Source: Bacteroidota bacterium
GTDB taxonomy: Bacteria; Bacteroidota; Bacteroidia; CAILMK01
NCBI GenBank assembly: GCA_036846145.1
Contig: DAIUCM010000005.1
Location: 11,032-59,813 of the forward strand
DNA length: 48,782 nt
Direction of reading: 5' to 3'
The number at the start of each line of letters is the position of its first letter. The first letter of the stretch is position 1. Position numbers and translations under genes: made by a program. Below the pieces are notes generated by a model. That model was not told where the DNA came from, made no database searches, and saw only the letters and a program-made list of their open reading frames with translations. Positions 6,374 to 44,971 of the stretch are shown in pieces.

Positions 6374-7168
6374 TTCTTTTTGCATGTCTTATTTTGCTTT
6401 GCATATAAGTAATAGCCAAATAATGCTTTGAAAAGCAGTTGAAATAAGATTTAAATCCTCACCAGCGAAACAATATTTTCTACATGGTAGGTATGCGGAA
6501 ACATATCTACCGGCTGAACTTGGGTTACTTTGTAAGCATCCCAAACTTCGCTCAGCTCGGGATGAGTGATTTACTGATGCCCTATGGCCGTGTAGAATAA
6601 TACTTTTGTCCATGACCTTGATATACTTATCACCTTGCTGTAGTCGTGCCACTGGCAGGAGGTTAATTTTCCGTCTTTGAAACAGCGCTTTACATATAAT
6701 ATTGCCTGTAAGAGAACGTATTTAGTATAGATTAAATTACAATACTGAATTAACTGCAAGAAGCTAATTTACAGTAATTTGCTGCTGTATTATTTCTGAA
6801 CCAACATACAATACTTTTGCCTCAATACTTACCTGATAATACTTTTAGTTTAACAGCATAAAGCATTTTTTTAGAGGTACCTATATGGAAGCTGAATAAA
6901 AAACCGGTTAAAGAAGCACAATTGCTTTGAAAATAAATTGCTATTCACTAATTTTGCACCCTTAATTATTAGTATCATGGGAAAAGGAAGTAAAACTACG
7001 CGCAATATGAATGTTCTTATAACAAGAATACTTCGCAAGCGCCAGCTAAAGAAAGGTGCGGCTAAAACTTTTGCAAGGCCCGATAATATTGGTCCTGCAC
7101 CGAAGATCAGCGACAGCAATTCAGAAGCATAATTTAAGCTGCAGGTAAAGCTGCGGTACGTACGATTT

Positions 7169-7827: not shown

Positions 7828-9480
7828 TTACAGGAAGCTGTAGCTTAAGCCGCCTGTAATTTGAAACCCGCGAGAAGGGTAAAAGTTCCAGAGCTGGTAT
7901 TGCGTGCCCAGTATGTTTTTGAGTTCGAGGTGCGCTTTTAAGCCTTTTGCATTGCCGCCAAAAGCATAGCTGATATTTGTATTAAGATCTATAATATTGC
8001 CCAGGTCGTAATCAGTCAATTTATAGGTATTGCTGGCCGAATCTTTAAGCCAGGTGCCGCCATAACGCTTGCCTGCGAAAAACAGGTCGGCGCCAATGCC
8101 AATTTTATTGGCGATGTTGTAACGACCGGTAATTACGGCATCAAAATTAGGCCTGTGGTAAGCTTTTGTTAAGGTAGATAAATTGTACGAATTTAAGTTT
8201 ACGGCCGCGCCAAGTATAAAATTTTCCATGATGGATAAACCTGCCTCGGCATGTACATTAAATACGTTTGTATTAGAATCGTACAGTACATTAAAGCGGC
8301 GCTTATCAACAGAATCGTTCAGGTAAAACGGCAGGTATTTGTAGTTTTTATACGCAAGCCCAACCGCAAAAGTTGATGTATTGCTGAAACTGCCTTTGGC
8401 GCCACCAAATAGGTTGAGCTTTTCATTGGTATTTTTTAACCTTATATCAGATGCTATAAAGTGGTTCTCGTAAGCAAACTGCCTGAAAGTATTTTCCTGT
8501 ATGTTACCGGTAATGCCGCCATAAAGCGTTAAGTATTTGGCAATTATATCAGCTTCCAGCTTTGCGTTCGGGTAAAAATGGAATGTTTCGTCCGATGCGG
8601 TTTTTATGCCAACATCTGCCCGGAAACCATTTACAATAAATTTATAACCGGCTGCTAGCCTCAATAAACCACGATCTATGGAAGTATCGGTTCTGTATTT
8701 CCAGTACTGGTAGCTTGCATCTGCATATATCCTGCTGCCGCGAAATGGTTCAACACCGGATGCGCCGATCCTAAAACCCGTTTCGCCAGTTTTATAGAAA
8801 TCGCTGAAATTATAAATGCCAAGATCTGCACCATACTGGAATTTTCCGGTATCGGCATTGGCACGTGCAAATTTTGTGTTGAAATAAATATCGTTAAAAC
8901 GCTGCTTTGTGCTGTCGGCATCGGTTATAGAATCTCCCGGAATCTGCGCATAGAACCTGTTTGCAAGCCTTTGGTAACCAAGGTTGCCGGTAATGCTATG
9001 GCCGGAGAAAACACGTTTGCCAAAAGCATCAATCATGTTTTCGGAAAAGCGCGAATCTTTAACCGGCCCGTTGCCCGAATGATGTTTGCCATGTAAAGTA
9101 AACAGGCTGTTTTTATTTCTTAAAGTATTGAAAATATATTCGCCATTCACATCAGCATAATTTCCAAACATAAGCTTTGCATAGTGATGATGCAGTTCTG
9201 ATACCGGTCCTTGTTTTAAGGTAGGCGCGCTTAGTTTGGCTTTAAAAGGCTCTGTATTGTAAATAAAAGCCGGTATTTTGTAGGTGATTTCCGGTTTGGC
9301 TGTATTAATGTTTTCCTGCACAGGCACAACGTCAATTTTTACGGCATCGCTAAGCTTTGGTTTGTAGCCCGTTACAATTATTACAGTTTCATCGCCCATG
9401 CTTTTTCTATCATTCTGTGCATAAGCTGCTGCAGAACTTAGTACAAGCAGCGCTGCTAAAGCATTTTTTGGGCCAATGAT
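7828..9480 (-). CDS. Outer-membrane beta-barrel protein with an uncertain start
   Basis: Long ORF ending ...GGLSYSFL, an aromatic C-terminal residue typical of OM beta-barrels, with alternating beta-strand-like composition. A signal-peptide-like segment KNALAALLVLSSAAAYAQ lies about 50 codons into the 7828..9621 ORF. No ATG/GTG/TTG is adjacent to it; the nearest candidates are ATC/ATT codons at 9480/9477. The upstream 9504-9558 carries a perfect 16-bp inverted repeat, so the real start is probably downstream of the ORF-track start. Confidence 0.6.
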   Translation of the reverse strand: MIGPKNALAALLVLSSAAAYAQNDRKSMGDETVIIVTGYKPKLSDAVKIDVVPVQENINTAKPEITYKIPAFIYNTEPFKAKLSAPTLKQGPVSELHHHYAKLMFGNYADVNGEYIFNTLRNKNSLFTLHGKHHSGNGPVKDSRFSENMIDAFGKRVFSGHSITGNLGYQRLANRFYAQIPGDSITDADSTKQRFNDIYFNTKFARANADTGKFQYGADLGIYNFSDFYKTGETGFRIGASGVEPFRGSRIYADASYQYWKYRTDTSIDRGLLRLAAGYKFIVNGFRADVGIKTASDETFHFYPNAKLEADIIAKYLTLYGGITGNIQENTFRQFAYENHFIASDIRLKNTNEKLNLFGGAKGSFSNTSTFAVGLAYKNYKYLPFYLNDSVDKRRFNVLYDSNTNVFNVHAEAGLSIMENFILGAAVNLNSYNLSTLTKAYHRPNFDAVITGRYNIANKIGIGADLFFAGKRYGGTWLKDSASNTYKLTDYDLGNIIDLNTNISYAFGGNAKGLKAHLELKNILGTQYQLWNFYPSRGFQITGGLSYSFL

Positions 9481-9641
9481 ATATGGAAAAATGTTGGAAT
9501 GTAGTAAAGTTGAAAAGTTATAAGGTTGCTTTGCACCGCAGTAAGTTTTCAACTTTTCAACTTTACAACCTTGTAACCTCATAAAAGCATTTTTTGCGTA
9601 TGTTATATATGGAAGCTTCATTTTTGGCTGAATTTTTAATG

Positions 9642-17366: not shown

Positions 17367-17666
17367 CTACCAATTCAAAACATCATTTGATAAATCTTTC
17401 CATTCAGGATTGGTTTTAATTATTAGTTCGTCCTTCCATTCGCGTTTCCAGCTTTTCAATTGTTTTTCTCTGGCAATTGCTTCTTCGATTGAATGGAAGC
17501 ATTCGTAATAGACCAGTTTAGTGCAGTTGAATTTTGATGTAAAGGAGTTTGGGTAAATTTTGGATTTGCGTTCTTGATTGCGTGTTTGTAAATCAGAGGT
17601 TACGCCGATGTATAAAACTGTGTGATGTTTGTTTGTGAGTATATAGATGCATCCGCCGCTTTCCAT
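17367..17666 (-). CDS. GIY-YIG nuclease family protein (UPF0213-like)
   Basis: CIYILTNKHHTVLYIGVTSDLQTRNQER...EEAIAREKQLKSWKREWK matches the GIY-YIG domain signature. Confidence 0.8.
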   Translation of the reverse strand: MESGGCIYILTNKHHTVLYIGVTSDLQTRNQERKSKIYPNSFTSKFNCTKLVYYECFHSIEEAIAREKQLKSWKREWKDELIIKTNPEWKDLSNDVLNW

Positions 17667-21010: not shown

Positions 21011-21216
21011 ATATAAAATACTCAAAAATACTTCAAATTTGCGGAATGCGGGAGCGAAAAGCACCGAAACGGCAAACAACCTTTGGCTACCCGAAGCATT
21101 TTTGGCGCTATGCCTATATGGAAACCTATATTCATTAATTTATGTGGTGTTTTAATAGTCCACTTTATGATGAAAATTTAAATATTTATAGATGGCTTAA
21201 TTTGTACCTTTGTATT

Positions 21217-21624
21217 ATGGTTGATATTCATGATAAGGCGACGCGCAGCTATAATATGAGCCAAATCAAGGGGAAGAATACAAAACCGGAAATCAAAGTG
21301 AGAAAATTTCTTTTTTCACATGGTTTTAGATTCCGTATTCATGATAAAAAACTTCCCGGAAAACCAGATATTGTATTACCTAAGTATAGAACAATAATTT
21401 TTGTGCAAGGATGTTTTTGGCATGGACATGAGCATTGTAAATATTTTAAACTTCCATCTACAAGACATGAGTGGTGGAAGGCAAAAATCGAAAAAAACAT
21501 TTCAAATGATAAAAAGACTCAAGAAACTTTAAAACAGCTTGGATATAAGATAATTGTAGTTTGGGAGTGTCAAATTAAAAATGATAGTTTTAAAGAAAGT
21601 CTAATAGAAGATGTCAGAAAATAA
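21217..21624 (+). CDS. vsr: Very-short-patch repair endonuclease
   Basis: RSYNMSQIKGKNTKPEIKVRKFLF...IIFVQGCFWHGHEHC...WWKAKIEKN is the Vsr signature (FxDGCFWHGH-like). The start is chosen at MVDIHD; the stop overlaps the dcm start by 14 nt. Confidence 0.85.
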   Translation: MVDIHDKATRSYNMSQIKGKNTKPEIKVRKFLFSHGFRFRIHDKKLPGKPDIVLPKYRTIIFVQGCFWHGHEHCKYFKLPSTRHEWWKAKIEKNISNDKKTQETLKQLGYKIIVVWECQIKNDSFKESLIEDVRK

Positions 21625-22819
21625 ATCTAAATATAAAGTTAAGAATATAAGTGAGCAAGAAGACTGGAGAGACAAAGTGTTTTCTAATCCTGAAGCTGAA
21701 ATAAGAATAGGGACTTTATTTAGTGGGATTGGTGCCGTAGAGCATGCTTTAAATAGATTAAAGTTAAAACATTCTATAGTTTTTGCTAGTGATATAGATC
21801 GTTTTGTCAAAGAAAATTATTTTGCAAACTATAATATATCACCAATTGATTGGTATGATGATGTGACTAAATTTAATGCCAAAAAGTACGAAGGAAAAGT
21901 TGATATCATTGTTGGCGGTAGCCCTTGTCAGGCTTTTTCAATGGTTGGTAAAAGGTTAGGCCTAGAAGATATAAGAGGTACATTATTTTATGATTTTGCA
22001 CGAATTGTTTCAGAAACACAGCCCAAAGTATTTATTTTTGAGAATGTTAAAGGCTTAATGAATCATGACGGAGGTAAAACATGGCAGGTAGTTCAAGATG
22101 TATTTAATGAACTTAAATATAATATTTTCTCAGATATTTTAAACAGTAAAGATTATGGGATCCCTCAACATCGTGAAAGGGTTTTTGTAGTGGGCTTTAA
22201 AGATCCGAATATAAAATTTGAGTTTCCCAAAAAAATTCAACTAGAGTATTCTATGCAGGATTTTCTTGAAGATTTTATAGAATCTAAATATTATCTTAAA
22301 GAAAAAGGAGTGAAGTTTGTTACAAGTTCAAAAAATAAGCAAAAACGATATACGCAGATAAATGGTGAAGTAATGCTTTGCCAAAAAGCCAACCAGCAGT
22401 TTAACTGGCATGGTGATTTTATCTATGAAGATGCGGATGATAACGATTTTAACGAGTTTGTCTTTGATATTGGCACTGTTGAAGAGAAATATTATCTTTC
22501 TGAAAAGGTAAAAACCTATGTTCTAAAAAATGGTACGAAAAATTTTAAAACAAGTGTTAAAACAGATTTAGAAATTGCCAGGCCTCTTTTACAGACTATG
22601 CACAAAATGCATAGGGCTGGAGTTGATAATTATGTAACGCATAAAGGAAGAATCAGAAAATTAACTCCGCGCGAATGTCTAAGATTAATGGGTTTCAGAG
22701 ATGATTTTAAAATTGCTGTAAGCGATACACAAATGTATAGGCAAGCCGGTAATAGTATAGTTGTTGATGTTTTAATAGCTTTGTTAAAGCAAATGGACAT
22801 TACCCAATTTGGAAAATAA
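21611..22819 (+). CDS. dcm: DNA (cytosine-5)-methyltransferase
   Basis: C5-MTase motifs in canonical order: I LFSGIGAVE, IV GGSPCQAFS, VI FIFENVKGL, VIII QHRERVFVVG, X AGNSIVVDV. The stop TAA overlaps the next ATG (TAATG). Confidence 0.9.
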   Translation: MSENKSKYKVKNISEQEDWRDKVFSNPEAEIRIGTLFSGIGAVEHALNRLKLKHSIVFASDIDRFVKENYFANYNISPIDWYDDVTKFNAKKYEGKVDIIVGGSPCQAFSMVGKRLGLEDIRGTLFYDFARIVSETQPKVFIFENVKGLMNHDGGKTWQVVQDVFNELKYNIFSDILNSKDYGIPQHRERVFVVGFKDPNIKFEFPKKIQLEYSMQDFLEDFIESKYYLKEKGVKFVTSSKNKQKRYTQINGEVMLCQKANQQFNWHGDFIYEDADDNDFNEFVFDIGTVEEKYYLSEKVKTYVLKNGTKNFKTSVKTDLEIARPLLQTMHKMHRAGVDNYVTHKGRIRKLTPRECLRLMGFRDDFKIAVSDTQMYRQAGNSIVVDVLIALLKQMDITQFGK

Positions 22820-24495
22820 TGCAAGAAATAAATATTCAGGGTATTCAATATAGTATTGTTGATAAGAAAGAAAGAATTACAATTGCCGATTCTTTTGTCT
22901 TACCATCAAATAAAATGGGTGGAGGTAACGGAGAGGCAAAGTTATACGTAGGGCAGAATGACTCAACATTAAGATCTTTTTTCGGCGAAAGAGGTTTCAA
23001 AGTTGATTGTTTTCTTTTGAAAGAAGATCTTCTTAGATTTATGAGTGAGATCAGGACAGAATATTTTGAACCATTTCAAAACTATAGAGAAAAAGAGAGT
23101 TTGCCAAAACTTTGGTTACAACGTTTAAATAAAGTAAAAGAATTACCAGAAAGGATTGATTTTAAATTTATTGACCAAGATCAAATTGCTGGCCCAAGGG
23201 TATATGTAAATTCAGATGGTGCAGGGTATAAATTAATTCGTGAACTGGCACTACCAGTTGTTTCATATTTAGATATTCTAAAGCTTCAAAATAATTCTAC
23301 ATTTAAGTATTATCTGAAATTAAATGTAGTTGACTCTGATATTACAATTGAGAAAGAAGTCGAAAATGAAGTGGAGTTTAAAATGCCCTTTGATCCAAAC
23401 AAAATAAAGGTTCGAACTATACCGTCAACAATTGGACAGATTATTCAAGACTTAGAAGATAAAATAATAAATTTAGACACAGAATTTCAAAGACATCCAA
23501 ACCTTTGGGATGAAAAAAAACAAAGTCGGTTTATTGAGTCTTTATTACTCAGATTGCCTATTCCTGCATTTTATTTTAACGAACGTGAAGAGAATTCGCT
23601 TGAAGTTATTGATGGTTTACAAAGAATAAGTACAATAAAAAATTTTGCGATTGATAAATCGCTTATTTTAAGAGATTTGGAATACCTGAAAGAATATAAT
23701 AATTTTTCTTTTGATCAATTGCCAAACTTATATAGTCGAAGAATTAAAACGTTCCCTATTATAACGTATGTAATTGAAAAGGATACTCCAGATGAGGTTA
23801 AATTTAATATTTTTAAAAGGGTAAATACTGGAGGTTTAGTTTTAACCCAGCAAGAAATCAGGCATGCAATAAATCAAGGGACACCATCCGAACTGGTTGC
23901 CGAGTTAGTACGTAGTAAAAGTGAAGAAATTGATGATAATGAAACTGTTATAGAATTAAAAGCGACACCTGAAGGTATTGCTTTTAAAGAAGCAACTGGC
24001 GATAAAATAGGGTCCTTTAGAATGGAGGATAGAGATTTTGCAACTCGTTTTGTTTCTTTTTATCTGATTCCATATACAGAATATGAACCTGATTTAGATA
24101 CTTTTTTAAATAGGGGAATGAGCAAAATTAGAGATTTATCTAAATACGAAATTGATGAACTAAAAAATAACTTTCGTGAAGCAATGAATTTAGCAAAGGA
24201 TATTTTTGGAGATGATGCTTTTAGAAAAAGATTTAATTTATCAGATAGCAGAAAACCAATAAATAAGGCCCTTTTTGAAGTATTAAGCGTGAATTTCGCC
24301 AAATTGTCTCAAAATGAAAGAAATATTTTACGCCTGAGAAAAGATATTTTTAAGAAATATTTGATGGAGTTACATAACAGACAAGATGGTAAGTTTTTAA
24401 GATCAATAACTCAAGGTACAGCTCAGAAAGAATCCGTTGATCAAAGATTCAGAGATATTGAGAAAATTATAAAGCAAACTTTAGAAAATGATTAA
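22819..24495 (+). CDS. DUF262 (ParB/Srx-like nuclease/NTPase domain) protein with about 190 aa of unknown N-terminal domain
   Basis: The central segment IIQDLEDKIINLDTEFQRHPNLWDEKKQSRFIESLLLRLPIPAFYFNE...LEVIDGLQRISTI matches the DUF262 DGQQR-type motif region seen in GmrSD/DndB/SspE families. No DUF1524/HNH C-terminus is visible. The stop overlaps the next start by 8 nt (ATGATTAA). Confidence 0.8.
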   Translation: MQEINIQGIQYSIVDKKERITIADSFVLPSNKMGGGNGEAKLYVGQNDSTLRSFFGERGFKVDCFLLKEDLLRFMSEIRTEYFEPFQNYREKESLPKLWLQRLNKVKELPERIDFKFIDQDQIAGPRVYVNSDGAGYKLIRELALPVVSYLDILKLQNNSTFKYYLKLNVVDSDITIEKEVENEVEFKMPFDPNKIKVRTIPSTIGQIIQDLEDKIINLDTEFQRHPNLWDEKKQSRFIESLLLRLPIPAFYFNEREENSLEVIDGLQRISTIKNFAIDKSLILRDLEYLKEYNNFSFDQLPNLYSRRIKTFPIITYVIEKDTPDEVKFNIFKRVNTGGLVLTQQEIRHAINQGTPSELVAELVRSKSEEIDDNETVIELKATPEGIAFKEATGDKIGSFRMEDRDFATRFVSFYLIPYTEYEPDLDTFLNRGMSKIRDLSKYEIDELKNNFREAMNLAKDIFGDDAFRKRFNLSDSRKPINKALFEVLSVNFAKLSQNERNILRLRKDIFKKYLMELHNRQDGKFLRSITQGTAQKESVDQRFRDIEKIIKQTLEND

Positions 24496-25606
24496 TAGAC
24501 TCAGAGTAAAGAATTTCAAATCTCATAAGAATACAGAATTAACATTAGGAAATCTTACTGTTCTAAGTGGACAAAACGGGGCCGGAAAATCTTCACTTAT
24601 CCAAGCATTACTTCTTCTGCGGCAAACGGATTTGAAGAAAAGATTAAATGAAATTTTGGATTTAAATGATCCACTATGCTATATTGGTAAAACAAAAGAT
24701 GCGCTATATCAGTACGCTGATAAAGATGAGGGTGATGAAATTGCTTTTGTTTTGTCAGGATCGCAAGGTGAACATTCTTGGATCTTCGAAACCTCTAGGG
24801 AGTCAACATATTTGCGGCGTGTTAATGATCTTATTGATAGTGAAGGTTATGAAGATCTGCCATTGTTTTCACCAAATTTTCAATACATAAGTGCAAGTAG
24901 AAATTCGGAGTATACCACAAATGATTATGAAGTAGAAGTTCTTAGGCAAATCTCGCTAAAAGAAGGTAAAGGTGAACTAGTAGCTCAGTATTTGGTGAAA
25001 TATGGAAAAAGCTTAAAAGTCATTGAGAGTTTAAGACATAATGATGAGCCCGATGAATTTTTATTAAGTCAAACTACTGCTTGGGAAAGAGAGATTAGCA
25101 AAGGAGTAAATGTAAATCCTAATACGGTAGGAGAAAACTATGAGATCAGATATTCATTTGATACAGAGAAATATGGAACTACAGATAAATTCTCGGCAAA
25201 AAATGTTGGATTTGGCCTTTCTTATTCTCTTCCAGTGATCGTTTCAGTTTTAGCTTCTAGCCCTGGTGCAATTTTATTTATTGAGAATCCTGAAGCACAT
25301 ATTCATCCTTATGGTCAAGCCAAATTAGCTGAATTATTATGTTTAGGTGCTCAAGCTGGTATTCAAATTATTGTTGAAACACATTCAGATCATATTATAA
25401 ATGGAATATTAGTTCAATGTAAAAAGTTTGAGAATAATGGTAAAGGAATTAACAGAAATAATGTAAAAATATATCATTTTGATAGGGAAGAACAGACACA
25501 TTCAACTGTATATACTGAAATAGAAATTAATGAGAGGATTAGGTTAAATAATAGACCTTTAGGCTTTTTTGATCAAATGAGCAAAGACTTAAGCTCTCTT
25601 ATTTAA
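24488..25606 (+). CDS. ABC-type AAA ATPase (AAA_21/DUF3696-like, OLD-family ATPase without a Toprim domain)
   Basis: Walker A LSGQNGAGKSSLIQAL; Walker B and D-loop region AILFIENPEAHIHPYGQ...IQIIVETHSDHII with the HIHP motif; 372 aa; stop TAA overlaps the next ATG. Confidence 0.8.
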   Translation: MINRLRVKNFKSHKNTELTLGNLTVLSGQNGAGKSSLIQALLLLRQTDLKKRLNEILDLNDPLCYIGKTKDALYQYADKDEGDEIAFVLSGSQGEHSWIFETSRESTYLRRVNDLIDSEGYEDLPLFSPNFQYISASRNSEYTTNDYEVEVLRQISLKEGKGELVAQYLVKYGKSLKVIESLRHNDEPDEFLLSQTTAWEREISKGVNVNPNTVGENYEIRYSFDTEKYGTTDKFSAKNVGFGLSYSLPVIVSVLASSPGAILFIENPEAHIHPYGQAKLAELLCLGAQAGIQIIVETHSDHIINGILVQCKKFENNGKGINRNNVKIYHFDREEQTHSTVYTEIEINERIRLNNRPLGFFDQMSKDLSSLI

Positions 25607-26532
25607 TGAATAAATTAATGAACACTTTTTATTTATATATAAAATTTCCAGATAATATTGAAGAATTAATAAATTCTGCAGATAAAAAAGATAATTTTAT
25701 TAAAGATGTTAAAATGCTCATTAATAGAGCAGATTGTGAGAGAGGAGCAATAGTTTATTATGATAATTTATCACTAGAAGTTTTTTTAGATGAATTAGAA
25801 GCCTATGAAGAGTTTTATGATACGTTGAGTTTAAAGGATATTATTCGTCTTCTTTTATTTAATAATGATGTACGCAACTGGAAAGATTACCAAAGACATG
25901 AATTAAATGAAGACATATTTTACTATAGAGAATGGGTTCCGGAAAATCGATGCTCAAATGATGATTTCCCTGCCATATTTAAAGAAGTCGCTGAATGTAC
26001 TTTTCAGATAGTAAATAAAGATCTTGAATTTTGTCTTCTAATATCCGTTGGACATAAACACACTAATAAATATATTTATATAATAAAAGATAATAGGTTT
26101 GGTGCGCCAATGTTAACTGCTTTTGAAGTAGTTAAAAACTTTAGTGATTTAGAAGAGTGGTTTAAGACCAAAAGATTAAAAAGAAACTATAATTTTGATG
26201 ATAATAGACATGTTGAAACTCATCCCGAATATAGAAATGGGAAATCACCTTTGATTAATGGACTTGCAGGTAAAAAAAATGCTGAAGAATTGTTGGTGGA
26301 TGCTGTTGGAGACCAAAAGGAATCAAAAGATCTAGTTAATTTTGATGGTTTACATAGCTGTTATATATGGTATGAATATGAAAATGCTAGTAATCAATAT
26401 CATGGTTATCATTTAGTAATAAATAATGGAACTAGGTATATTCGTGATGTTAAAGAGGAAGAAAAAATGATACCTGATCGAGCTAAGGAAATAATAGAAT
26501 ATAGAAAAAGTCTCACATCTATAACTGCGTGA
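25606..26532 (+). CDS. Hypothetical protein, 308 aa; last gene of the vsr-dcm-DUF262-ATPase operon with no recognisable motifs
   Basis: ATG overlaps the ATPase stop (TAATG); AT-rich; protein-like composition, including an acidic, aromatic-rich C-terminal half. Confidence 0.6.
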   Translation: MNKLMNTFYLYIKFPDNIEELINSADKKDNFIKDVKMLINRADCERGAIVYYDNLSLEVFLDELEAYEEFYDTLSLKDIIRLLLFNNDVRNWKDYQRHELNEDIFYYREWVPENRCSNDDFPAIFKEVAECTFQIVNKDLEFCLLISVGHKHTNKYIYIIKDNRFGAPMLTAFEVVKNFSDLEEWFKTKRLKRNYNFDDNRHVETHPEYRNGKSPLINGLAGKKNAEELLVDAVGDQKESKDLVNFDGLHSCYIWYEYENASNQYHGYHLVINNGTRYIRDVKEEEKMIPDRAKEIIEYRKSLTSITA

Positions 26533-26764
26533 AGGATGGAAGCGGTTACCCCGCAGCGATAGCGAGGAGTAAAAGCGGACAGCCTGACCCGCAGGGGCAC
26601 GCCCAAAAAGTCAATTAAAAATTATCAATTAAAAATTAAAAATTGGCTTCGCCATATATGCCATGGCTGAAAAATGCTTTGTACAGTGATCAGTTACAAG
26701 TAAAAAGTGATGTCTGCCTTTTGCGCTGAAAACTCCTTATTTTACCGCCTGCCGCGCGAGGAAT

Positions 26765-28195: not shown

Positions 28196-28524
28196 GTTGG
28201 TTTGATTGGTTTAAGTGGTATGCAAATATATTAATTGCCTGTGTATTTTTACTTTTAGGATGGAATGAATTCCGTCTCTACAAAATTGGTCGTCCTTACA
28301 GGACTTTTTCGTAGTGCTGAAACCAGTACCGGAGGGACCGCCGATTCTATTGTAACGAATTTCAACCCGATGTTCTCAGAAAATCATTTAAAATTCATCA
28401 TTCATCATTCAAAATTTCTCTCAGTTTTCCATATATGTGGTGGCTAAAAAATGCTTTGGCAGTGAAAAGTACAGGCAACTTAGGGGATTGTGTTTCCGTC
28501 TTTATCATATTAAAAACCAACAAC

Positions 28525-33525: not shown

Positions 33526-33993
33526 GAAGCAAATGCTTTGAAGCTATAACATTCAGTTTTTGCAAAATGTAAATTTACTATGGCAAAAAATATTTCCACC
33601 ACTTTCCCAAACATTTTAAAACATCATTTGTAATTCCTGTATATAATTTGGCGCCGATGTGCGTTGAACGAATGTAACCACTAACCAAAATATCCATATA
33701 AGGCAAAGCTGAAAAATGCTTTTACATTGCGAATCCGCAATCACGTGCCTTCTGTACCCAATCCCTTTAAGATTAAAAAATCTAAAAGCTGCAGCTGCAG
33801 GTTTTATGTCTGATCCGCGTTAAAAATTTGCGAATTGCAATTATTTTTCCGCAATTCCATATTTTTTGTATCTTTGATTTATTCAAATGACTTGAAGCAT
33901 TTTTACGCGAAAGCAGATATGCAATGAGCGATTTTGTGTAAATTTTTTCATAATTTGTAAACCTTAACCAGTCAACTATAAACTAAACATATT

Positions 33994-34743: not shown

Positions 34744-34978
34744 TTCATTCTAAAAGCATTTTTCACCAAAACTATATATGGAAGAATTGGAAAATTGAAA
34801 GATTGAAAAATTGAAAAATTACTTCGCGCCGCTGCATTTTTAAAAGCGCCCGATGTTCAATCCCGACTGTTTCGGGATGGAACATCTATTTTTGATATAA
34901 AAATAAAAATTGCTTCGCATCTCGGAAAATATTTACTCATGTACTCAATTACTCATTCACTCATTGTAAAAAACTAAC

Positions 34979-38680: not shown

Positions 38681-41600
38681 ATGACCACAACACCGGAAAC
38701 AAAGCAACCAACAGACCAGCTCGAGAAAGGCACGTATGAAGTAATTCGCAACAGGCTACTGAACCAGGGCATCGATTTGCAACAGCGCATTGGCAAACTG
38801 AACGATGCGCGCAAAAGCATTTTTGGTACGCTGGAGAGTAAGCTGGTGGCCACAGAACGTATTACCACGGAGCACAATTGCATCCCGATGGACATGATTC
38901 CCGTGGGCGATTTTTTCCTGTTTGGTTACAATGTACGTTTCGGCCTTAAGACAGAGATTGCGCTGGAGGATGTTTTTTCCATATATAAGAAGTCCGAAAA
39001 ATATTTTCAGCATGTTGGGCTTGAGCTGATTTCCGATGCGCGTTTTGCCGAAGATTTCAGGAATTTATACAAGTATTTCCGCGAAACAAGGTTTATAAAG
39101 TTTGCGCAGATCGGGCCGCATTTGTTCATGGTTTTCCAGGTTGGCAAAACGGTGAACGATGTGAAAACTTTTAAATGGACGCTCTCGCCAAAAGGTGAAC
39201 TGGTTTACCTCGATAATCGCAGCGACCATGAATTTACTTATCCGCAACAATACGAATTCAGCTGGAAACGCACTACACGCGAGCAGCATCGCGAAGGTTT
39301 GCATCCGCATATTTCTATTGAAGACAAGGTTTTTGTAGAGACTATTGGCGGCGACTTAACCATAAAAATTGAAGATAATACGAGCACCGGCAAGGGAATT
39401 TACAGCGAGGAAGTTGAGCTGAAAGACCAGACTTTGGATGACGGTGAGATCTATTATTCCATATTGGGAAATATTATTCTGCTGAAAATTCGCCCGTACA
39501 AAGAGAACAAATACCGCTACCTGGTTTACAACCAGAAATTGCAACAGGCGCTGCGGATTAACGCGCTGGAAGACAGTTGTATTTTGCTTCCTGAAGGCCA
39601 AGGAATTATTTTCAGCAACGGCTTTTACCTGCAAACCGGCGAGCACAAATTATTCGAAGGCAAGCAGGAGAAAATGATCTTCGAAAAGCGAATTGCTTCA
39701 CCCAATGGCGAGGATTTCCTGTTCGTTTATTTTAAGCCGGAAGACACTTCTTACCTGCTGCTTTTTTATAACCTCATTGAGCAAAAAATTACCAATACCA
39801 TTTTTTGCCACGGTTACAGTTTGTTCGAAAATGGCGAGCTGAGTTTTTTCCGTGCCGATACCGAACCGCAGAAATTTCACACCATTTCTACCTGGCAAAC
39901 TGCTTTCACCGGCCCGAATTATGTTTGGGATACACAAAGCGATTCGTATTTGTATAAGGTTGGAAATAAGGAAATTGTGAAGGCAATGGCCGATTGCCGC
40001 GCGCTGCACACTTTGCTCAACAAGGAAGATTCTTACCTGAACCTATATATAGATCTTTCGAAAAAAGCTTCGGAAATTCTGGATGCGTATCATTGGCTCG
40101 ATAAACCCGATGCGTACGAGTTGATTCAGCCCTTGTCCACCATTCGCGAGGCAGCTTCTTCGGCCATTAATGAGTTCGAAAAAGTTAGCGCCATACGAAA
40201 AAACACTGCGCAGGAAGTTGAAAAAGTAACCGAAAAATTCAGTAAACTAAGTAAAATTGTAAAGCATGATGCAGACAATATTACAGAATTTGTTCAGCAT
40301 TTGTCTGATTTGCGTGTGTTACGTGGCGAGCTGATTTCAGCCAAAAAACTTCGCTATGCAGATGTAAAATCTTTGCATGATTTTGAAGTCCAAACTGAAG
40401 TTTTAAGTGATGATGTTTCACAAAGATGCGTTACTTTTTTACTCGGGGAAAAAGCGCTTTCGCCATACGAGGAACAGGTAAAAACGCTGAGCCAATCTAT
40501 TCCTGCGCTGACCAAAACTACCGATGCAGATGCGGTTGAAGAGCAGGCGAAAAAATTATCAGCCGAACTGGAAATGCTCATAGAAACGGTGAGCAACCTG
40601 AAGATAAAAGACCCGACAGAAACAACGCGGATTATTGATGCTATTTCCGCAATTTATTCCGGCTTTAACCAGATTCGCGCGGCACTAAAAAACAAGCGCC
40701 AAAACCTGGCAGGAGAGGAGGGAAAAGCTGAATTTAATGCGCAGTTAAAGCTTGTCGATCAGTCGGTTATAAACTTTCTGGATGTTTGTGATAAGCCCGA
40801 AAAATGCGATCAGTACCTGAATAAACTGATGGTGATGCTGGAAGAAATGGAAGGCAAATTTTCTGCTTTCGATGAATTCGTATCACTTATCACTGAAAAG
40901 CGCGAAGAGGTTTATTCCGCTTTTGATGCACGAAAAATTCAGCTTACCGAAGCGCAGCAAAAACGCGCTGCGAGTTTAATGGCTTCTGCAGAACGGATTC
41001 TGAATGGCGTGAAAAACCGTTCCCTGAGTTTCAGTGAAGCGGCAGATGTAAACGGTTATTTCGCTGCGGATGCGATGGTTTCGAAGGTTCGCGATATTGC
41101 AAGTCAGCTGAAAGAAATTGGTGAAAACCTGAAAGCTGATGAGCTGGAAGGCAAACTGAAAACGCTGAATGAAGATGCGCTGCGCCAGTTGAAAGACAAG
41201 AAGGAAATGTACCTTTCCGGCGGGAATGTCATCAAGATCGGCAAGCACCAGTTCTCTGTAAACACGCAGCCGATCGATCTTTCCATCATCGCCAAAGAAG
41301 ACAAACTTTTCTTCCATTTAAGCGGCACAAAATTCTACGAAGAAATTAAGGATGAATCGCTTCAAAGCGCTAAAAATCTTTGGGAGCAACATCTTGTTTC
41401 TGAAAATAATGATGTTTATCGGTCTGAATATTTAGCATGGAAAATCTTCGCGGCAACCAAAGGAAACCGCATACTTTCAATAGCAGAAAATGAAAAAGTC
41501 AATATAAGCGAACTGCAAAAAATGCTTTCGGCAGATTTACTATTGTACGTGCAGAAATGCATGGCGCCGCTGTACAATGAAGGTTATATTAAAGGTGTTC

Positions 41601-43606
41601 ATGATGCAGATGCGGCGAAGATTTTAGAAGTTTTGGTTGCGACGGATTCAGGTGCGGATTTGCTGCGTTACAACAGTAATTCACGGGCTTGTGCGAGTTT
41701 ATACTGGCATCATTTTGTGGCAGATGAACGCAAACAATTGCTGCAGCACAGGCTCAAAGGAGTTGGTATAATTCTACAGGTTTTCCCGAATTCAAAACAG
41801 TTTCAACAGCTTGTAAACGAAATTGATGCGGATATTAAGAACTTCATCAAAGAAACAGAATTATTTGAGGTTGAAATCGCTGATGAAGCAGCAGAATACT
41901 TGTTCCATGAGATCAGCCGCGATGATGAATTTATTGTGGATGCGCAAGCCGTTCACCTGCAAACCATGTTCACCGATTATCTTACGCAGCACAATTTTTA
42001 CCACGATTTTGAGAAATCTGTAAAGGCGCTTGATGGCAACTGGACCGCTAAATACCGCTTGCTGAGAAAATGGATCGCCGCATATATAGAATTCGCAGAA
42101 AATGCTTCAAGTCATGGATTTAGAGATGAAATAGCAGCGTTGCTACTGCATCACAATTCGCATACAGAAAAAATTCATGCGGTTGCCTTGCAGCAGGAAA
42201 TTGATGGAATGAACGGAAATCATCATTTAATTCAAAACGGAAAATACCAGTTCGATTTCCACCAATTCAATAAAAAATTACTGGCTTTCCATAAAGAATC
42301 TGTTCCTGCATTTATAGAATTTCAGCATCGTAAAAAAGCCCTTACGGACCAGTTCCGCAAGCAGTTAAGATTGGAAGAATTCCAGCCGAAAGTGCTTACA
42401 TCTTTTGTGCGAAACAAGCTTCTGGATAATGCCTATTTGCCATTTATCGGCGATAATCTCGCGAAGCAATTGGGAACAGTTGGCGATACAAAACTCAGCG
42501 ACAGAATGGGAATGTTACTGTTGATCTCGCCGCCGGGTTACGGTAAAACCACATTGATGGAATACTTGTGCAGCCGATTGGGATTGGTTTTCATGAAGAT
42601 AAACGGACCAGCTATTGGCCACAATGTAATGTCTGTTGATCCGAAAGAAACCGGAAATGCTGCTGCTGCAGAAGAACTGGAAAAGCTGAATCTTGCGCTG
42701 GAAATGGGTGATAATATGATGTTGTATCTTGATGATATTCAGCATTGTAATCCGGAGTTTTTACAGAAATTTATTTCGCTTTGTGATGCGCAACGGAAAA
42801 TGGAAGGTGTTTACAAAGGCAGAAGCAAAACCTATGATCTGAAAGGCAGGAAAGTTTGCGTGGTGATGGCCGGAAATCCATATACAGAAAGCGGCGAGAA
42901 ATTCCGTATTCCGGATATGTTGGCGAACCGTGCGGATATTTATAATCTGGGTGATGTTGTTGGCAGCGCGAACCATTTTTTCACATTGTCCTATATAGAA
43001 AATTGCCTTAGCGTAAATCCTGTGCTCAATAAATTAGCCACAAAAAGCCAGGCTGATATTTATTCTTTCCTGAAAATGGCCGAGAATGAAGGGGCAGAAG
43101 GTTTGAATTTTGAAGCCTCATATTCCGCTGCAGAAGTACAGGAAATTGTAAGCGTTTTACGCAAGTTAACGAAAATTCGCGATGTGATTTTCCGTGTGAA
43201 CCAGGAATATATTCATTCTGCTGCGCAAGCTGAAGAATATCGTACTGAGCCTGCTTTCCGCTTACAGGGTTCTTACCGCGATATGAGCAAGATTGCCGTT
43301 AAAGTTTTGCCTGTTTTAAATGATGCTGAATTGGATGAATTGCTGCTTTCACATTATACCAACGAATCGCAAACCTTAACTAGCGGCGCTGAAGCTAATC
43401 TGCTGAAGTTTAAGGAAATGGTTGGCTGGATGAATGAAAAAGATAAACAGCGCTGGGAAGACATTAAAACAACTTTCGTGAAGAATAACAAGTATAAATC
43501 GCTTGGTGAAAGTTCTGTTAATCATGTTATTACGCATATGGAGAATATGACGGAAGGGATTAATTCGATTGCGCAGGTTTTGGCGAAAGCGGTTGAAGGG
43601 AAGTAA
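38681..43606 (+). CDS. Very large (1641 aa) protein with a C-terminal AAA+ ATPase domain (AAA_5/MoxR-McrB-like) and an N-terminal roughly 1250 aa of mostly alpha/coiled-coil region of unknown function
   Basis: Walker A LLISPPGYGKTTLMEYL, Walker B MMLYLDDIQHCNPE and sensor/arginine-finger region VCVVMAGNPYTE...RIPDMLANRADIYNLG are placed around residues 1290-1450. The ORF is uninterrupted. Confidence 0.8.
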   Translation: MTTTPETKQPTDQLEKGTYEVIRNRLLNQGIDLQQRIGKLNDARKSIFGTLESKLVATERITTEHNCIPMDMIPVGDFFLFGYNVRFGLKTEIALEDVFSIYKKSEKYFQHVGLELISDARFAEDFRNLYKYFRETRFIKFAQIGPHLFMVFQVGKTVNDVKTFKWTLSPKGELVYLDNRSDHEFTYPQQYEFSWKRTTREQHREGLHPHISIEDKVFVETIGGDLTIKIEDNTSTGKGIYSEEVELKDQTLDDGEIYYSILGNIILLKIRPYKENKYRYLVYNQKLQQALRINALEDSCILLPEGQGIIFSNGFYLQTGEHKLFEGKQEKMIFEKRIASPNGEDFLFVYFKPEDTSYLLLFYNLIEQKITNTIFCHGYSLFENGELSFFRADTEPQKFHTISTWQTAFTGPNYVWDTQSDSYLYKVGNKEIVKAMADCRALHTLLNKEDSYLNLYIDLSKKASEILDAYHWLDKPDAYELIQPLSTIREAASSAINEFEKVSAIRKNTAQEVEKVTEKFSKLSKIVKHDADNITEFVQHLSDLRVLRGELISAKKLRYADVKSLHDFEVQTEVLSDDVSQRCVTFLLGEKALSPYEEQVKTLSQSIPALTKTTDADAVEEQAKKLSAELEMLIETVSNLKIKDPTETTRIIDAISAIYSGFNQIRAALKNKRQNLAGEEGKAEFNAQLKLVDQSVINFLDVCDKPEKCDQYLNKLMVMLEEMEGKFSAFDEFVSLITEKREEVYSAFDARKIQLTEAQQKRAASLMASAERILNGVKNRSLSFSEAADVNGYFAADAMVSKVRDIASQLKEIGENLKADELEGKLKTLNEDALRQLKDKKEMYLSGGNVIKIGKHQFSVNTQPIDLSIIAKEDKLFFHLSGTKFYEEIKDESLQSAKNLWEQHLVSENNDVYRSEYLAWKIFAATKGNRILSIAENEKVNISELQKMLSADLLLYVQKCMAPLYNEGYIKGVHDADAAKILEVLVATDSGADLLRYNSNSRACASLYWHHFVADERKQLLQHRLKGVGIILQVFPNSKQFQQLVNEIDADIKNFIKETELFEVEIADEAAEYLFHEISRDDEFIVDAQAVHLQTMFTDYLTQHNFYHDFEKSVKALDGNWTAKYRLLRKWIAAYIEFAENASSHGFRDEIAALLLHHNSHTEKIHAVALQQEIDGMNGNHHLIQNGKYQFDFHQFNKKLLAFHKESVPAFIEFQHRKKALTDQFRKQLRLEEFQPKVLTSFVRNKLLDNAYLPFIGDNLAKQLGTVGDTKLSDRMGMLLLISPPGYGKTTLMEYLCSRLGLVFMKINGPAIGHNVMSVDPKETGNAAAAEELEKLNLALEMGDNMMLYLDDIQHCNPEFLQKFISLCDAQRKMEGVYKGRSKTYDLKGRKVCVVMAGNPYTESGEKFRIPDMLANRADIYNLGDVVGSANHFFTLSYIENCLSVNPVLNKLATKSQADIYSFLKMAENEGAEGLNFEASYSAAEVQEIVSVLRKLTKIRDVIFRVNQEYIHSAAQAEEYRTEPAFRLQGSYRDMSKIAVKVLPVLNDAELDELLLSHYTNESQTLTSGAEANLLKFKEMVGWMNEKDKQRWEDIKTTFVKNNKYKSLGESSVNHVITHMENMTEGINSIAQVLAKAVEGK

Positions 43607-44311: not shown

Positions 44312-44971
44312 TTAATCCTCCAAAGGCATTTTTTTGTAATCGCTTATATGGGGAATATCTGCAGAATTATCTTTCTCATTCATCCAATCGGGTTTTTCGG
44401 GCGGTTGCGGGCCGTGTTTTCGGTATAAAAAAGCTACCAAGCTTCCGGTAATGGCGCCAAACAAATGTGCTTCCCAGCTAATGCCTTCTTCACCGGGTAA
44501 AATCCCCCAAAGCATACTGCCATAAAACGCAATGATCAGGAGCGAGATGGCCATAAAAGAGCGGATTTTTTTGATTATTCCACTGAAAAACAGGAAGAAA
44601 GCGAAACCGTAAATAAGTCCGCTTGCACCGATGTGGTAGGTTCCGCCACGCGCGAAGATCCATATAAGCAAGCCTGTAAAAATGCTTATTAGGCTTATTA
44701 CCTGCCAGGCTTTCTGCCTGTAGAAATACAAAATGCCTATGCTTAAAACAAGTACCGGGCTGGTGTTAGATAGCAAATGCTTTAAATCGCCATGTATAAA
44801 TGGTGAAGAAATTATGCCTTTTAAGCCACTAATCTCGCGAGGCAAAATTCCCAGTTTGTACAGATCGAAGCCAAAAGTAATTTCCGCCCATTTTATCAGC
44901 CATATTACTATAACGAATAAAAAAGGCGGAATAAAACTTTTTATAATTGAAGTATTTTCCGGCATCTGCAT
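44312..44971 (-). CDS. Rhomboid-family intramembrane serine protease
   Basis: Multi-TM protein with the GxSG active-site motif (YHIGASGLIYGF) and a downstream conserved His region (LWGILPGEEGISWEAHLFGAITG). Confidence 0.8.
   Translation of the reverse strand: MQMPENTSIIKSFIPPFLFVIVIWLIKWAEITFGFDLYKLGILPREISGLKGIISSPFIHGDLKHLLSNTSPVLVLSIGILYFYRQKAWQVISLISIFTGLLIWIFARGGTYHIGASGLIYGFAFFLFFSGIIKKIRSFMAISLLIIAFYGSMLWGILPGEEGISWEAHLFGAITGSLVAFLYRKHGPQPPEKPDWMNEKDNSADIPHISDYKKMPLED

Follow-up and report, generated by a model that had tools for sequence, protein, structure and literature searches.

Menshen is an anti-phage system first found in Solibacillus silvestris (Millman et al., 2022; PMC12065111), and phage protection has been shown by experiment for the S. 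silvestris StLB046 system only (PMC12065111). A computational dissection of the system by Li et al. (Nucleic Acids Research, 2025; PMC12065111) included the N-terminal sensor domains of NsnA and the methylases that neighbour it. In that description NsnA is a sensor made of ParB-DUF262 and ParBDB domains, NsnB is an ABC ATPase that has an unusual EN in its Walker B motif and a DUF3696 helix, and NsnC combines a PIN-like domain with an effector domain of one of about 15 kinds, most of them BECR RNases. Menshen has been found in 27 phyla, and 27.9% of its operons have restriction-modification systems, BREX or methylases in their vicinity (PMC12065111). Here we analyse a 48,782-nucleotide (nt) stretch of DNA from Bacteroidota bacterium (GCA_036846145.1, contig DAIUCM010000005.1, positions 11,032-59,813, forward strand), referred to below as the window. 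It contains five tightly packed plus-strand open reading frames (ORFs) at 21142-26532, an insert of about 5.4 kb, in which the genes for Vsr and the DNA methyltransferase Dcm are followed by a trio that matches Menshen. The features of the locus are listed here, with lengths in amino acids (aa).

21142-21624, plus strand: vsr, probable true start at ATG 21217 (135 aa)
21611-22819, plus strand: dcm, C5-cytosine DNA methyltransferase, 402 aa; proposed self-marking component
22819-24495, plus strand: nsnA (ORF3), 558 aa
22819..23328, plus strand: nsnA residues 1-170, B3-type DNA-binding pseudobarrel, after which a disordered linker runs to about residue 190
23338..24495, plus strand: nsnA core, residues ~174-558, ParB-DUF262 NTPase-like domain and C-terminal helical DNA-binding (ParBDB) domain
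24488-25606, plus strand: nsnB (ORF4), 372 aa, ABC-type (AAA_15/OLD-ABC) ATPase with DUF3696 C-terminal helix; proposed signal transducer
25606-26532, plus strand: nsnC (ORF5), 308 aa, or 304 aa from ATG 25618; effector, PIN-like at residues ~1-190 and BECR-like at ~191-308

The trio was identified with the PADLOC models. ORF3 matches NsnA (5.5e-128, residues 174-556, model positions 23-384 of 385), and ORF4 and ORF5 match NsnB (1.4e-99) and NsnC (1.2e-36), both over their full length; the competing models AriA, GajA, Old, HEC and MAD3 lie far below these matches. The three genes are contiguous on one strand (22819-26532), in the same order as in all related loci. In NsnA, Pfam finds GmrSD_N/DUF262 (1.2e-20) at residues 212-350 and no DUF1524/HNH half, the C-terminal part matching the NsnA model instead. 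Its motifs I (FQRHPNLW), II (DGLQR) and III (FKRVN) correspond to the definitions QRxxxW, DGxQR and FxxxN in PMC12065111. NsnB matches AAA_15, AAA_21 and DUF3696 in Pfam, with no Toprim domain. It has the Walker A motif GQNGAGKS, a Walker B motif LFIENPE with the EN typical of NsnB, GFG in place of SGG, and the H-loop ETHSDH; the EN Walker B and the GFG replacement are the deviations given for NsnB in PMC12065111.

A sequence-only reading of this DNA, made before any database was searched, had correctly described a DUF262 protein with an IDGLQR motif and no DUF1524/HNH part, and an ATPase with an HIHP motif and no Toprim domain. It had also taken the trio to be uncharacterised, a view that by its own account a match to a described system would overturn, and the matches to NsnA, NsnB and NsnC do so. 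We are highly confident that the trio is a Menshen anti-phage system of Type II, acquired horizontally and joined to the modification half of a Dcm-type cassette (vsr-dcm). As a matter of annotation, trios of a DUF262 protein, a DUF3696 ATPase and an unannotated protein of about 300 aa should be called Menshen.

The S. silvestris StLB046 system has the same gene order and the same families (ParB-DUF262+ParBDB, an EN/DUF3696 ATPase, and a PIN-like plus BECR-like effector). That prototype is however of Type I, having neither an N-terminal sensor on NsnA nor a coupled methylase, whereas NsnA in the window carries a B3 domain of 170 aa and is translationally coupled to dcm. The window shares its architecture class with the Type II Menshen of PMC12065111, which has B3-fold N-terminal domains and methylase neighbours, with or without a nearby nuclease. 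The main text of that paper makes no mention of Dcm/Vsr, of homology between the N-terminal domain and a neighbouring HNH enzyme, or of a strict link to one methylase clade. As far as sequence can tell, the locus has all the testable features that define Menshen and its Type II.

Residues 1-170 of NsnA are predicted to form a B3 pseudobarrel, with a predicted local distance difference test score (pLDDT) of 92.6. The best bacterial structural matches are all recognition domains of restriction enzymes, namely LlaJI.R1 (7.2), UbaLAI (6.9), NgoAVII (6.9), EcoRII (6.2 and 5.5) and BfiI (6.2). Since this B3 fold is additional and N-terminal to ParB-DUF262, the system is a Type II Menshen of the B3 class in the terms of PMC12065111, where the B3-fold classes are PS-B3-1, PS-B3-2 and EcoRII-N. 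The domain agrees with these in fold class. Pfam gives no significant match in the region at E<0.1, and no NCBIfam family covers it. It is conserved in 40 long-form homologues.

The B3 domains of EcoRII, UbaLAI (CCWGG), BfiI (ACTGGG), NgoAVII (GCCGC) and LlaJI.R1 are likewise reading domains, but they are only 6-11% identical to that of NsnA. Those of EcoRII, BfiI, NgoAVII and UbaLAI read unmodified sequence (PMC12065111). Here, in contrast to those enzymes, B3 is attached either to an HNH_2 nuclease (in relatives) or to a ParB-DUF262 sensor that would signal to an ATPase and an RNase-like toxin rather than cut DNA. The HNH_2 form was found as a second B3 copy in some loci, where it makes up the N-terminal half of a protein of 325-375 aa with a C-terminal HNH_2 nuclease. 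This HNH half matches PADLOC HNH models, two of which are described there as Type II restriction enzymes, and a protein search with B3 by itself returned further HNH_2 fusions, two of them named "putative restriction endonuclease" at source. The NsnA-fused and HNH-fused B3 domains are 50-58% identical, and the NsnA forms have a mean identity of 53.5% among themselves, which makes them one family; ten residues are invariant in both forms. In six of the loci where the two forms co-occur, the B3 of the endonuclease shares only 30-36% identity with that of NsnA from the same locus. Comparison of the NsnA B3 with the N-terminal domain of the LlaJI.R1-like protein in one related locus (L103) gave an hhalign probability of 9% and an E of 0.0035, so that homology is not demonstrable by sequence.

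A profile search puts the NsnA family at 10,059 cluster representatives, and B3 forms are rare within it (5 of the top 150). The search was meant as an exhaustive one for other B3 architectures, but its profile kept NsnA core columns (550 positions) and returned mostly the NsnA family. One protein of 677 aa (P0197) has a B3 profile match at residues 2-198, with the query matched in three stretches, and is possibly a further B3 architecture.

The B3 domain is coupled to a particular clade of Dcm. This was first seen in two homologous loci, where the stop codon of a C5 methylase gene overlaps the start of a long-form nsnA. In a first set of 80 NsnA loci, fetched from genomes and scored by tblastn, every B3 locus has directly upstream a Dcm that is 68-82% identical to that of the window, and the loci lacking B3 have no Dcm homologue within about 8 kb. 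When metagenomes were scanned with the B3 profile, 293 stretches were confirmed and 80 loci were kept; in these the arrangement is overwhelmingly Dcm followed immediately by B3-HNH, that is, a classical methylase-endonuclease pair. The final counts cover all fetched loci and exclude the window.

B3-NsnA loci (n=19): Dcm at most 80 nt upstream in 17; farther upstream in 2 (L103 and L166, with a restriction gene between); no other arrangement
B3-HNH ORFs (n=79): Dcm at most 80 nt upstream in 62; farther in 12 (8 of them behind the Menshen trio); elsewhere in the locus in 1; none in 4, on truncated contigs
NsnA core without B3 (n=74): Dcm at most 80 nt upstream in 0; farther in 0; none detected within about 8 kb

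With the window counted, a same-strand upstream Dcm is thus present in 20/20 B3-NsnA loci, at a distance of at most 80 nt in 18. The Dcm homologues upstream of B3-bearing genes, both NsnA and HNH, are 58-83% identical to the window Dcm, and the stop codon of dcm overlaps the start of nsnA in five loci (the window, L002, L004, L167 and L168). The Dcm+B3 pair accompanies two clades of NsnA cores whose mutual identity is only 31-36%, with about 70-77% identity for Dcm and 44-58% for B3, and it therefore behaves as a transferable module. The accompanying restriction genes vary in kind and position.

B3-HNH after nsnC: L002, L026, L027, L118, L122, L139, L149, L168
B3-HNH between dcm and nsnA: L166
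LlaJI-type R1/R2 pair: L103
No classical endonuclease: window, L006/L153, L007, L008, L033, L155, L167

A classical endonuclease is thus missing from about half of the B3-NsnA loci, with enough sequence to say so in seven, including the window. The island in the window has no HNH, PD-(D/E)xK, PLD or GIY-YIG restriction gene, and no B3-HNH homologue is present anywhere in the window. Dcm in these loci therefore has no partner other than Menshen. In the nearest relative of the window (L166 50-6744, NsnA 67% identical) the order is Vsr-Dcm-[B3-HNH, 325 aa]-B3-NsnA-NsnB-NsnC, and the stop/start junction after dcm, AATAATGCA, is the same as that between dcm and nsnA in the window. The idea that two B3 copies recombined recently and so deleted the endonuclease was considered and rejected; sliding identity shows no chimera, and the window B3 tracks the NsnA-type copy of L166 throughout. 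L103 (2067-10662) reads Vsr-Dcm-[AAA_5 protein, 525 aa]-[RE_LlaJI, 448 aa]-B3-NsnA-NsnB-NsnC-DUF2971, and here the same methylase clade is paired with a third kind of effector module.

The window Dcm matches Pfam DNA_methylase (7.7e-81) and TIGR00675 (287 bits), and its C5-methylase motifs FSGIG, PCQ, ENV, QHRER and GNS are all intact. In a comparison with the PDB its catalytic part is nearest to M.HhaI (6e-53, residues 31-228 only), and its target-recognition region has no match there. The Dcm/M.EcoRII-type structures 3lx6 and 3me5 align to residues 87-232 only. The locus resembles E. coli Dcm-Vsr/EcoRII in having a C5 methylase and Vsr, overlapping genes and a B3-bearing partner; it differs in that the target-recognition region cannot be aligned with Dcm/M.EcoRII-type structures, and a CCWGG specificity is for this reason unsupported. 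Among 71 homologues the target-recognition region (residues 229-345) has a per-site identity of 0.79 versus 0.67 for the catalytic N-terminal part, and a single shared specificity, matching one conserved reader, is therefore likely. Pooled and per-locus k-mer depletion gave weak pointers to CCAG/CTGG, CCGG, CCNGG and CCWGG, which are confounded by the many palindromes that differ between the sets compared. No depletion is seen in the window itself (observed/expected ratios of 1.14 for CCGG and 0.91 for CCWGG).

Vsr, the T:G mismatch endonuclease of very-short-patch repair, is identified by Pfam Vsr (6.4e-35), TIGR00632 (146.4 bits against a cutoff of 97.85) and PADLOC Vsr (4e-39), and has the motifs PDIV and GCFWHGH. 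The sequence-only reading had taken Dcm and Vsr for a functional pair, and we agree: Vsr scores above its family cutoff, and its gene overlaps that of the C5 methylase by 14 nt. Vsr is present in about half of the B3-NsnA loci, lying upstream of dcm or after nsnC (L006/L153, L027, L103, L118, L122, L149, L166, L167). It is worth adding that several relatives (L026 180-1706, L167 6527-8008, L002 1293-1607) have an N-terminal HTH_3/HTH_31 helix-turn-helix (HTH) domain on a Dcm of about 490-508 aa, or a separate upstream HTH_31 gene, an arrangement that resembles controller-type regulation of restriction-modification systems. The window Dcm (402 aa) has no HTH, and vsr is upstream instead.

The effector NsnC is predicted to fold as a PIN-like half followed by a BECR-like toxin domain, which is the standard NsnC architecture. 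Neither a PD-(D/E)xK nor an HNH or Toprim fold is seen in it, and it has no significant match in Pfam or NCBIfam. PIN-like and BECR-like folds are both typical of RNases, and on these models NsnC is probably an RNase, not a missing DNase. In the C-terminal half, R193, N196, D199, R201, H202, K213-S214-P215, E257, E259, H266, Y268 and H269 are invariant in 17 homologues, a cluster compatible with the H-R-H type BECR centre of the prototype effector (PMC12065111). In the PIN-like half (25606-26175, residues 1-190), D43-C44-E45 and E127 are invariant across the same number of homologues, but conservation does not extend to the first canonical PIN aspartate, after strand 1. Menshen PIN domains have been considered inactive (PMC12065111) or possibly active (a 2026 BECR-classification preprint), and the invariant residues bear on this dispute.

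From these family assignments, folds and strict genomic coupling we infer a mechanism, and we lean slightly towards the whole of it. Dcm would methylate its target sequence on host DNA, and Vsr would repair the T:G mismatches that arise from deaminated 5-methylcytosines, offsetting the mutagenic cost. The B3 domain of NsnA would bind the Dcm target only when unmethylated, as on an incoming phage or plasmid, and would load the ParB-DUF262/ParBDB core on the foreign DNA. DNA-bound NsnA would switch the NsnB ATPase, and NsnB would release or activate NsnC, whose BECR-like (possibly also PIN-like) nuclease would degrade RNA and stop the infection, possibly costing the cell. The last three steps (loading, the NsnB switch, NsnC release) are modelled on the general Menshen scheme of PMC12065111. 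Methylation sensitivity should reside in B3, because B3 is the only plausible sequence reader in the two-domain B3-HNH enzyme. The translational coupling of dcm and nsnA would secure the methylase whenever the sensor is made. With no endonuclease in the window, Menshen would take the restriction arm there; in about half of the related loci it would be a second layer beside a B3-HNH or LlaJI-type enzyme. Whether methylases that have no nuclease might join Menshen in acting on non-modified DNA is a question already put, independently, by Li et al. (PMC12065111). The sequence-only reading had also tied the trio to the methylase and aimed it at unmethylated DNA, and for this there is now comparative support, from the shared B3 domain and from the presence of Dcm in 20/20 B3 loci versus 0/74 loci without B3.

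The locus could go further and be a true restriction-modification/abortive hybrid, a proposal that we see as evenly poised between right and wrong. A methylation-sensitive B3 head would have been moved onto NsnA, with the unmethylated Dcm target as trigger, Dcm as essential antidote and an ATPase-controlled RNase as output; Dcm and B3 would form a "reader kit" interchangeable among HNH, LlaJI-type and Menshen modules. Menshen, its B3-fold N-terminal domains and its methylase neighbourhoods were known already, and what is added here is a concrete, testable trigger hypothesis for one subfamily. A sensor domain with a clear job in sister proteins, together with a methylase in the same operon, turns a vague question about the trigger into simple experiments. 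If the hybrid is real, it would be the first variant of Menshen whose trigger is defined, and would mean that recognition modules of Type II restriction-modification can be rewired to non-DNase effectors. The loci illustrate the evolution of defence by swapping a "reader plus methylase" kit between killing modules.

Several considerations weigh against sensing of unmethylated Dcm sites by NsnA. Type I Menshen works without a methylase, so the core must avoid self in some other way, and B3 may only add affinity. The real endonuclease in about half of the loci could alone explain Dcm, and in the endonuclease-less loci Dcm-Vsr could be an orphan remnant. The effector, as modelled, looks like an RNase, which would mean that this is not restriction in the DNA-cleaving sense. 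The loci are also related to one another (B3 identity of 99% for L006/L153, 92% for L118/L122 and 86% for L027/L149), so that the independent observations number fewer than 20. Lastly, methylation sensitivity of B3 is argued from comparison between proteins, and its support is comparative, not experimental.

The main rival makes Menshen and Dcm mere neighbours. Menshen would have hitch-hiked in a mobile Dcm/HNH cassette, its fused B3 being a methylation-blind anchor and its trigger the same as in Type I, while Dcm and Vsr served an HNH enzyme that has been lost, leaving an orphan methylase. Defence genes commonly cluster and recombine, and this reading is helped by the independence of Type I Menshen from methylases, by the retention, in about half of the B3-NsnA loci, of a B3-HNH or LlaJI-type endonuclease, which would explain Dcm, and by the 27.9% of Menshen operons found near restriction-modification, BREX or methylases (PMC12065111). 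Against mere proximity stand the contrast between 20/20 and 0/74, which holds across NsnA cores only about 33% identical, and the overlap of dcm stop and nsnA start in the five loci given above. In the seven loci without an endonuclease Dcm is intact and has all its catalytic motifs, and the residues invariant in the endonuclease B3 are also invariant in NsnA, which argues for the same reading function. We consider this rival rather improbable. A guard or decoy function, in which the NsnA B3 copies the reading head of the endonuclease, is less probable again. Phage anti-restriction proteins (DNA mimics or B3 binders) would bind NsnA and trigger NsnB and NsnC, as Ocr does with PARIS, and Dcm would be present only because its system is guarded. 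NsnB indeed scores 5e-29 on the AriA (PARIS) models, the predicted NsnB-NsnC contacts resemble PARIS and Septu (PMC12065111), and seven loci hold both B3-NsnA and a B3-HNH endonuclease, to which L103 adds a LlaJI-type pair. Against this, seven loci, the window among them, have no endonuclease to guard; a B3 only 30-36% identical to that of the endonuclease, as in six of the loci with both, would be a poor decoy; and NsnA keeps two further DNA-binding domains, which fits the sensing of DNA.

A Type IV-like abortive infection, in which NsnA senses modified foreign DNA and Dcm is unrelated or marks DNA for another purpose, was the alternative offered in the sequence-only reading, and we think it very unlikely. 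HNH_2 domains are also found in methyl-dependent enzymes, which counts in its favour. So does the sensing of glucosyl-hydroxymethylcytosine by DUF262 in GmrSD and of phosphorothioate in SspE (PMC12065111). A reader of 5-methylcytosine placed directly after a 5-methylcytosine methylase, and translationally coupled to it, would nevertheless be self-toxic; the B3-HNH partners stand in classical methylase-endonuclease pairs in 62 loci and match Type II PADLOC HNH models; and the B3 domains of EcoRII, BfiI, NgoAVII and UbaLAI, as noted, read unmodified sequence. The literal claim of the same reading, that this is an uncharacterised restriction system whose 308-aa protein, without recognisable motifs, supplies the missing DNA nuclease, has almost no chance of being right. 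ORF5 and the N-terminal domain of NsnA do lie outside every Pfam and NCBIfam family, but all three proteins match Menshen models, the system is in the literature, and ORF5 is a standard NsnC, most likely an RNase, whose PIN-like and BECR-like halves are not PD-(D/E)xK, HNH or Toprim folds. Sensing of unmethylated Dcm sites by the B3 domain of NsnA is thus the reading that we prefer.

Other systems are alike in part. PARIS, Septu (PtuA/PtuB), Gabija and OLD also use an ABC/OLD-type ATPase to control a nuclease effector, and NsnB matches the AriA, GajA, Old and PtuA models. These matches are however 5e-29 or worse, versus 1.4e-99 for NsnB; there is no Toprim or HNH partner here, and those systems have no DUF262 sensor. 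The GajA and Old models match only ATPase segments of the 372-aa NsnB, which ends in DUF3696. GmrSD, SspE and DndB share the succession of a ParB-DUF262 NTPase-like domain and a helical DNA-binding domain; unlike them, the window NsnA has no fused DUF1524 HNH, and they sense modified DNA whereas the context here argues for unmodified DNA. BREX, DISARM and MADS are similar in logic only, a methylase marking self and non-endonuclease machinery acting on unmarked DNA; none of their signature genes is present here, and the match of NsnB to the MADS MAD3 ATPase model (1.5e-10) is below cutoff. The window has a methylase and, because it has no DNA endonuclease, is not classed as Type II restriction-modification; at the sensing step its mode of action may still be similar.

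The locus is a compact insert in a metagenomic contig of Bacteroidota type (ENA ERZ1669374 NODE_216), not a defence island. Housekeeping genes surround it (shikimate-pathway genes, cytidylate kinase, a UvrD-like helicase, and secreted proteins with type IX secretion system tails), and scans with Rfam and for tRNA genes, together with the gene list, found no integrase, tRNA or Rfam RNA in the whole window, and thus no tRNA integration site. The content of guanine plus cytosine (GC) is 0.307 over 21130-26535 (0.28-0.33 for single genes); the flanks stand at 0.413 each, and the UvrD-like and beta-lactamase genes at 0.455 and 0.461, respectively. The sequence-only reading had remarked that DUF262-ATPase pairs recur in defence islands, a context that is lacking here; it was right about the AT-rich composition and, from the GC contrast and tight packing, about horizontal acquisition and operon-like organisation. 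Direct reading of the sequence likewise bore out its five plus-strand ORFs and their junctions, which in gene order are the 14-nt vsr/dcm overlap, TAATG, ATGATTAA and TAATG. Its unbroken chain of overlaps probably holds only in part. Vsr and ORF5 probably start later than the longest ORF, judging from homologues: for Vsr the hidden Markov models and homologues begin at residue 26, giving ATG 21217, and for nsnC the homologue alignment and the ENA gene call give ATG 25618 (304 aa). The latter leaves an 11-nt spacer after nsnB in place of the TAATG overlap, and related loci have gaps of 9-16 nt here. The genes would stay tightly packed regardless, and it is from gene packing only that we infer co-transcription of the five. 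A scan for sigma-70 promoters and terminators found no excess of sigma-70-like sites, a promoter type that is likely wrong for Bacteroidota.

Both edges of the island carry a bipartite motif, A-AAGCATTTTT(tg)-N~9-(A)TATATGG-AA, which has 35 sites in the window with at most 2 mismatches (10 of them exact), versus 0.10 expected from shuffles. The sites include 6861-6888, 9459-9486, 9585-9612, 21094-21121, 26652-26679, 28429-28456, 33694-33721, 34754-34781 and 44660-44687. Intergenic sites account for 21/35 and the rest are intragenic, five of them in the 1641-aa ORF at 38681-43606; the motif is found in both orientations, also between convergent gene ends. It has no match in 1.66 Mb of other fetched loci and is for that reason taken as lineage-specific. 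To our knowledge it differs from the canonical Bacteroidota -33/-7 promoter consensus. Candidate identities are a promoter or regulatory box particular to the lineage, a REP-like (repetitive extragenic palindromic) element and a sequence resembling an uptake signal. The imperfect inverted repeat of 28 nt at 21094-21121/26652-26679 was considered as the terminal inverted repeats of a mobile cassette and rejected, being two copies of this 35-copy host motif. The edge copies mark host DNA, not the ends of an element, and therefore place the insert between about 21122 and 26651.

Directly 3' of the nsnC stop, 26533-26651 contains a GC-rich stretch of about 70 nt that is single-copy in the window. 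Within the GC-rich stretch is a terminator-like hairpin with a T-run on the minus strand (26592-26575), and 3' of the hairpin lies a perfect tandem 14-mer, TCAATTAAAAATTA x2, at 26611-26638, with no Rfam match. The stretch may be host intergenic DNA (a bla terminator or the leader of the uvrD-like gene) or the end of the insert. A 99-aa GIY-YIG/T5orf172 protein is encoded at 17367-17666 on the minus strand, between the genes for cytidylate kinase and the UvrD-like helicase; it lies at a distance of about 3.5 kb from the island and has no evident link to it. Among the relatives, a tyrosine integrase, an HTH_17 gene and a DUF5906 primase-like gene stand beside the B3-Menshen cassette of L167 (703-4599), and a resolvase and an integrase beside that of L002 (7993-11016). 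Such mobility genes, which the window copy does not have, fit horizontal transfer.

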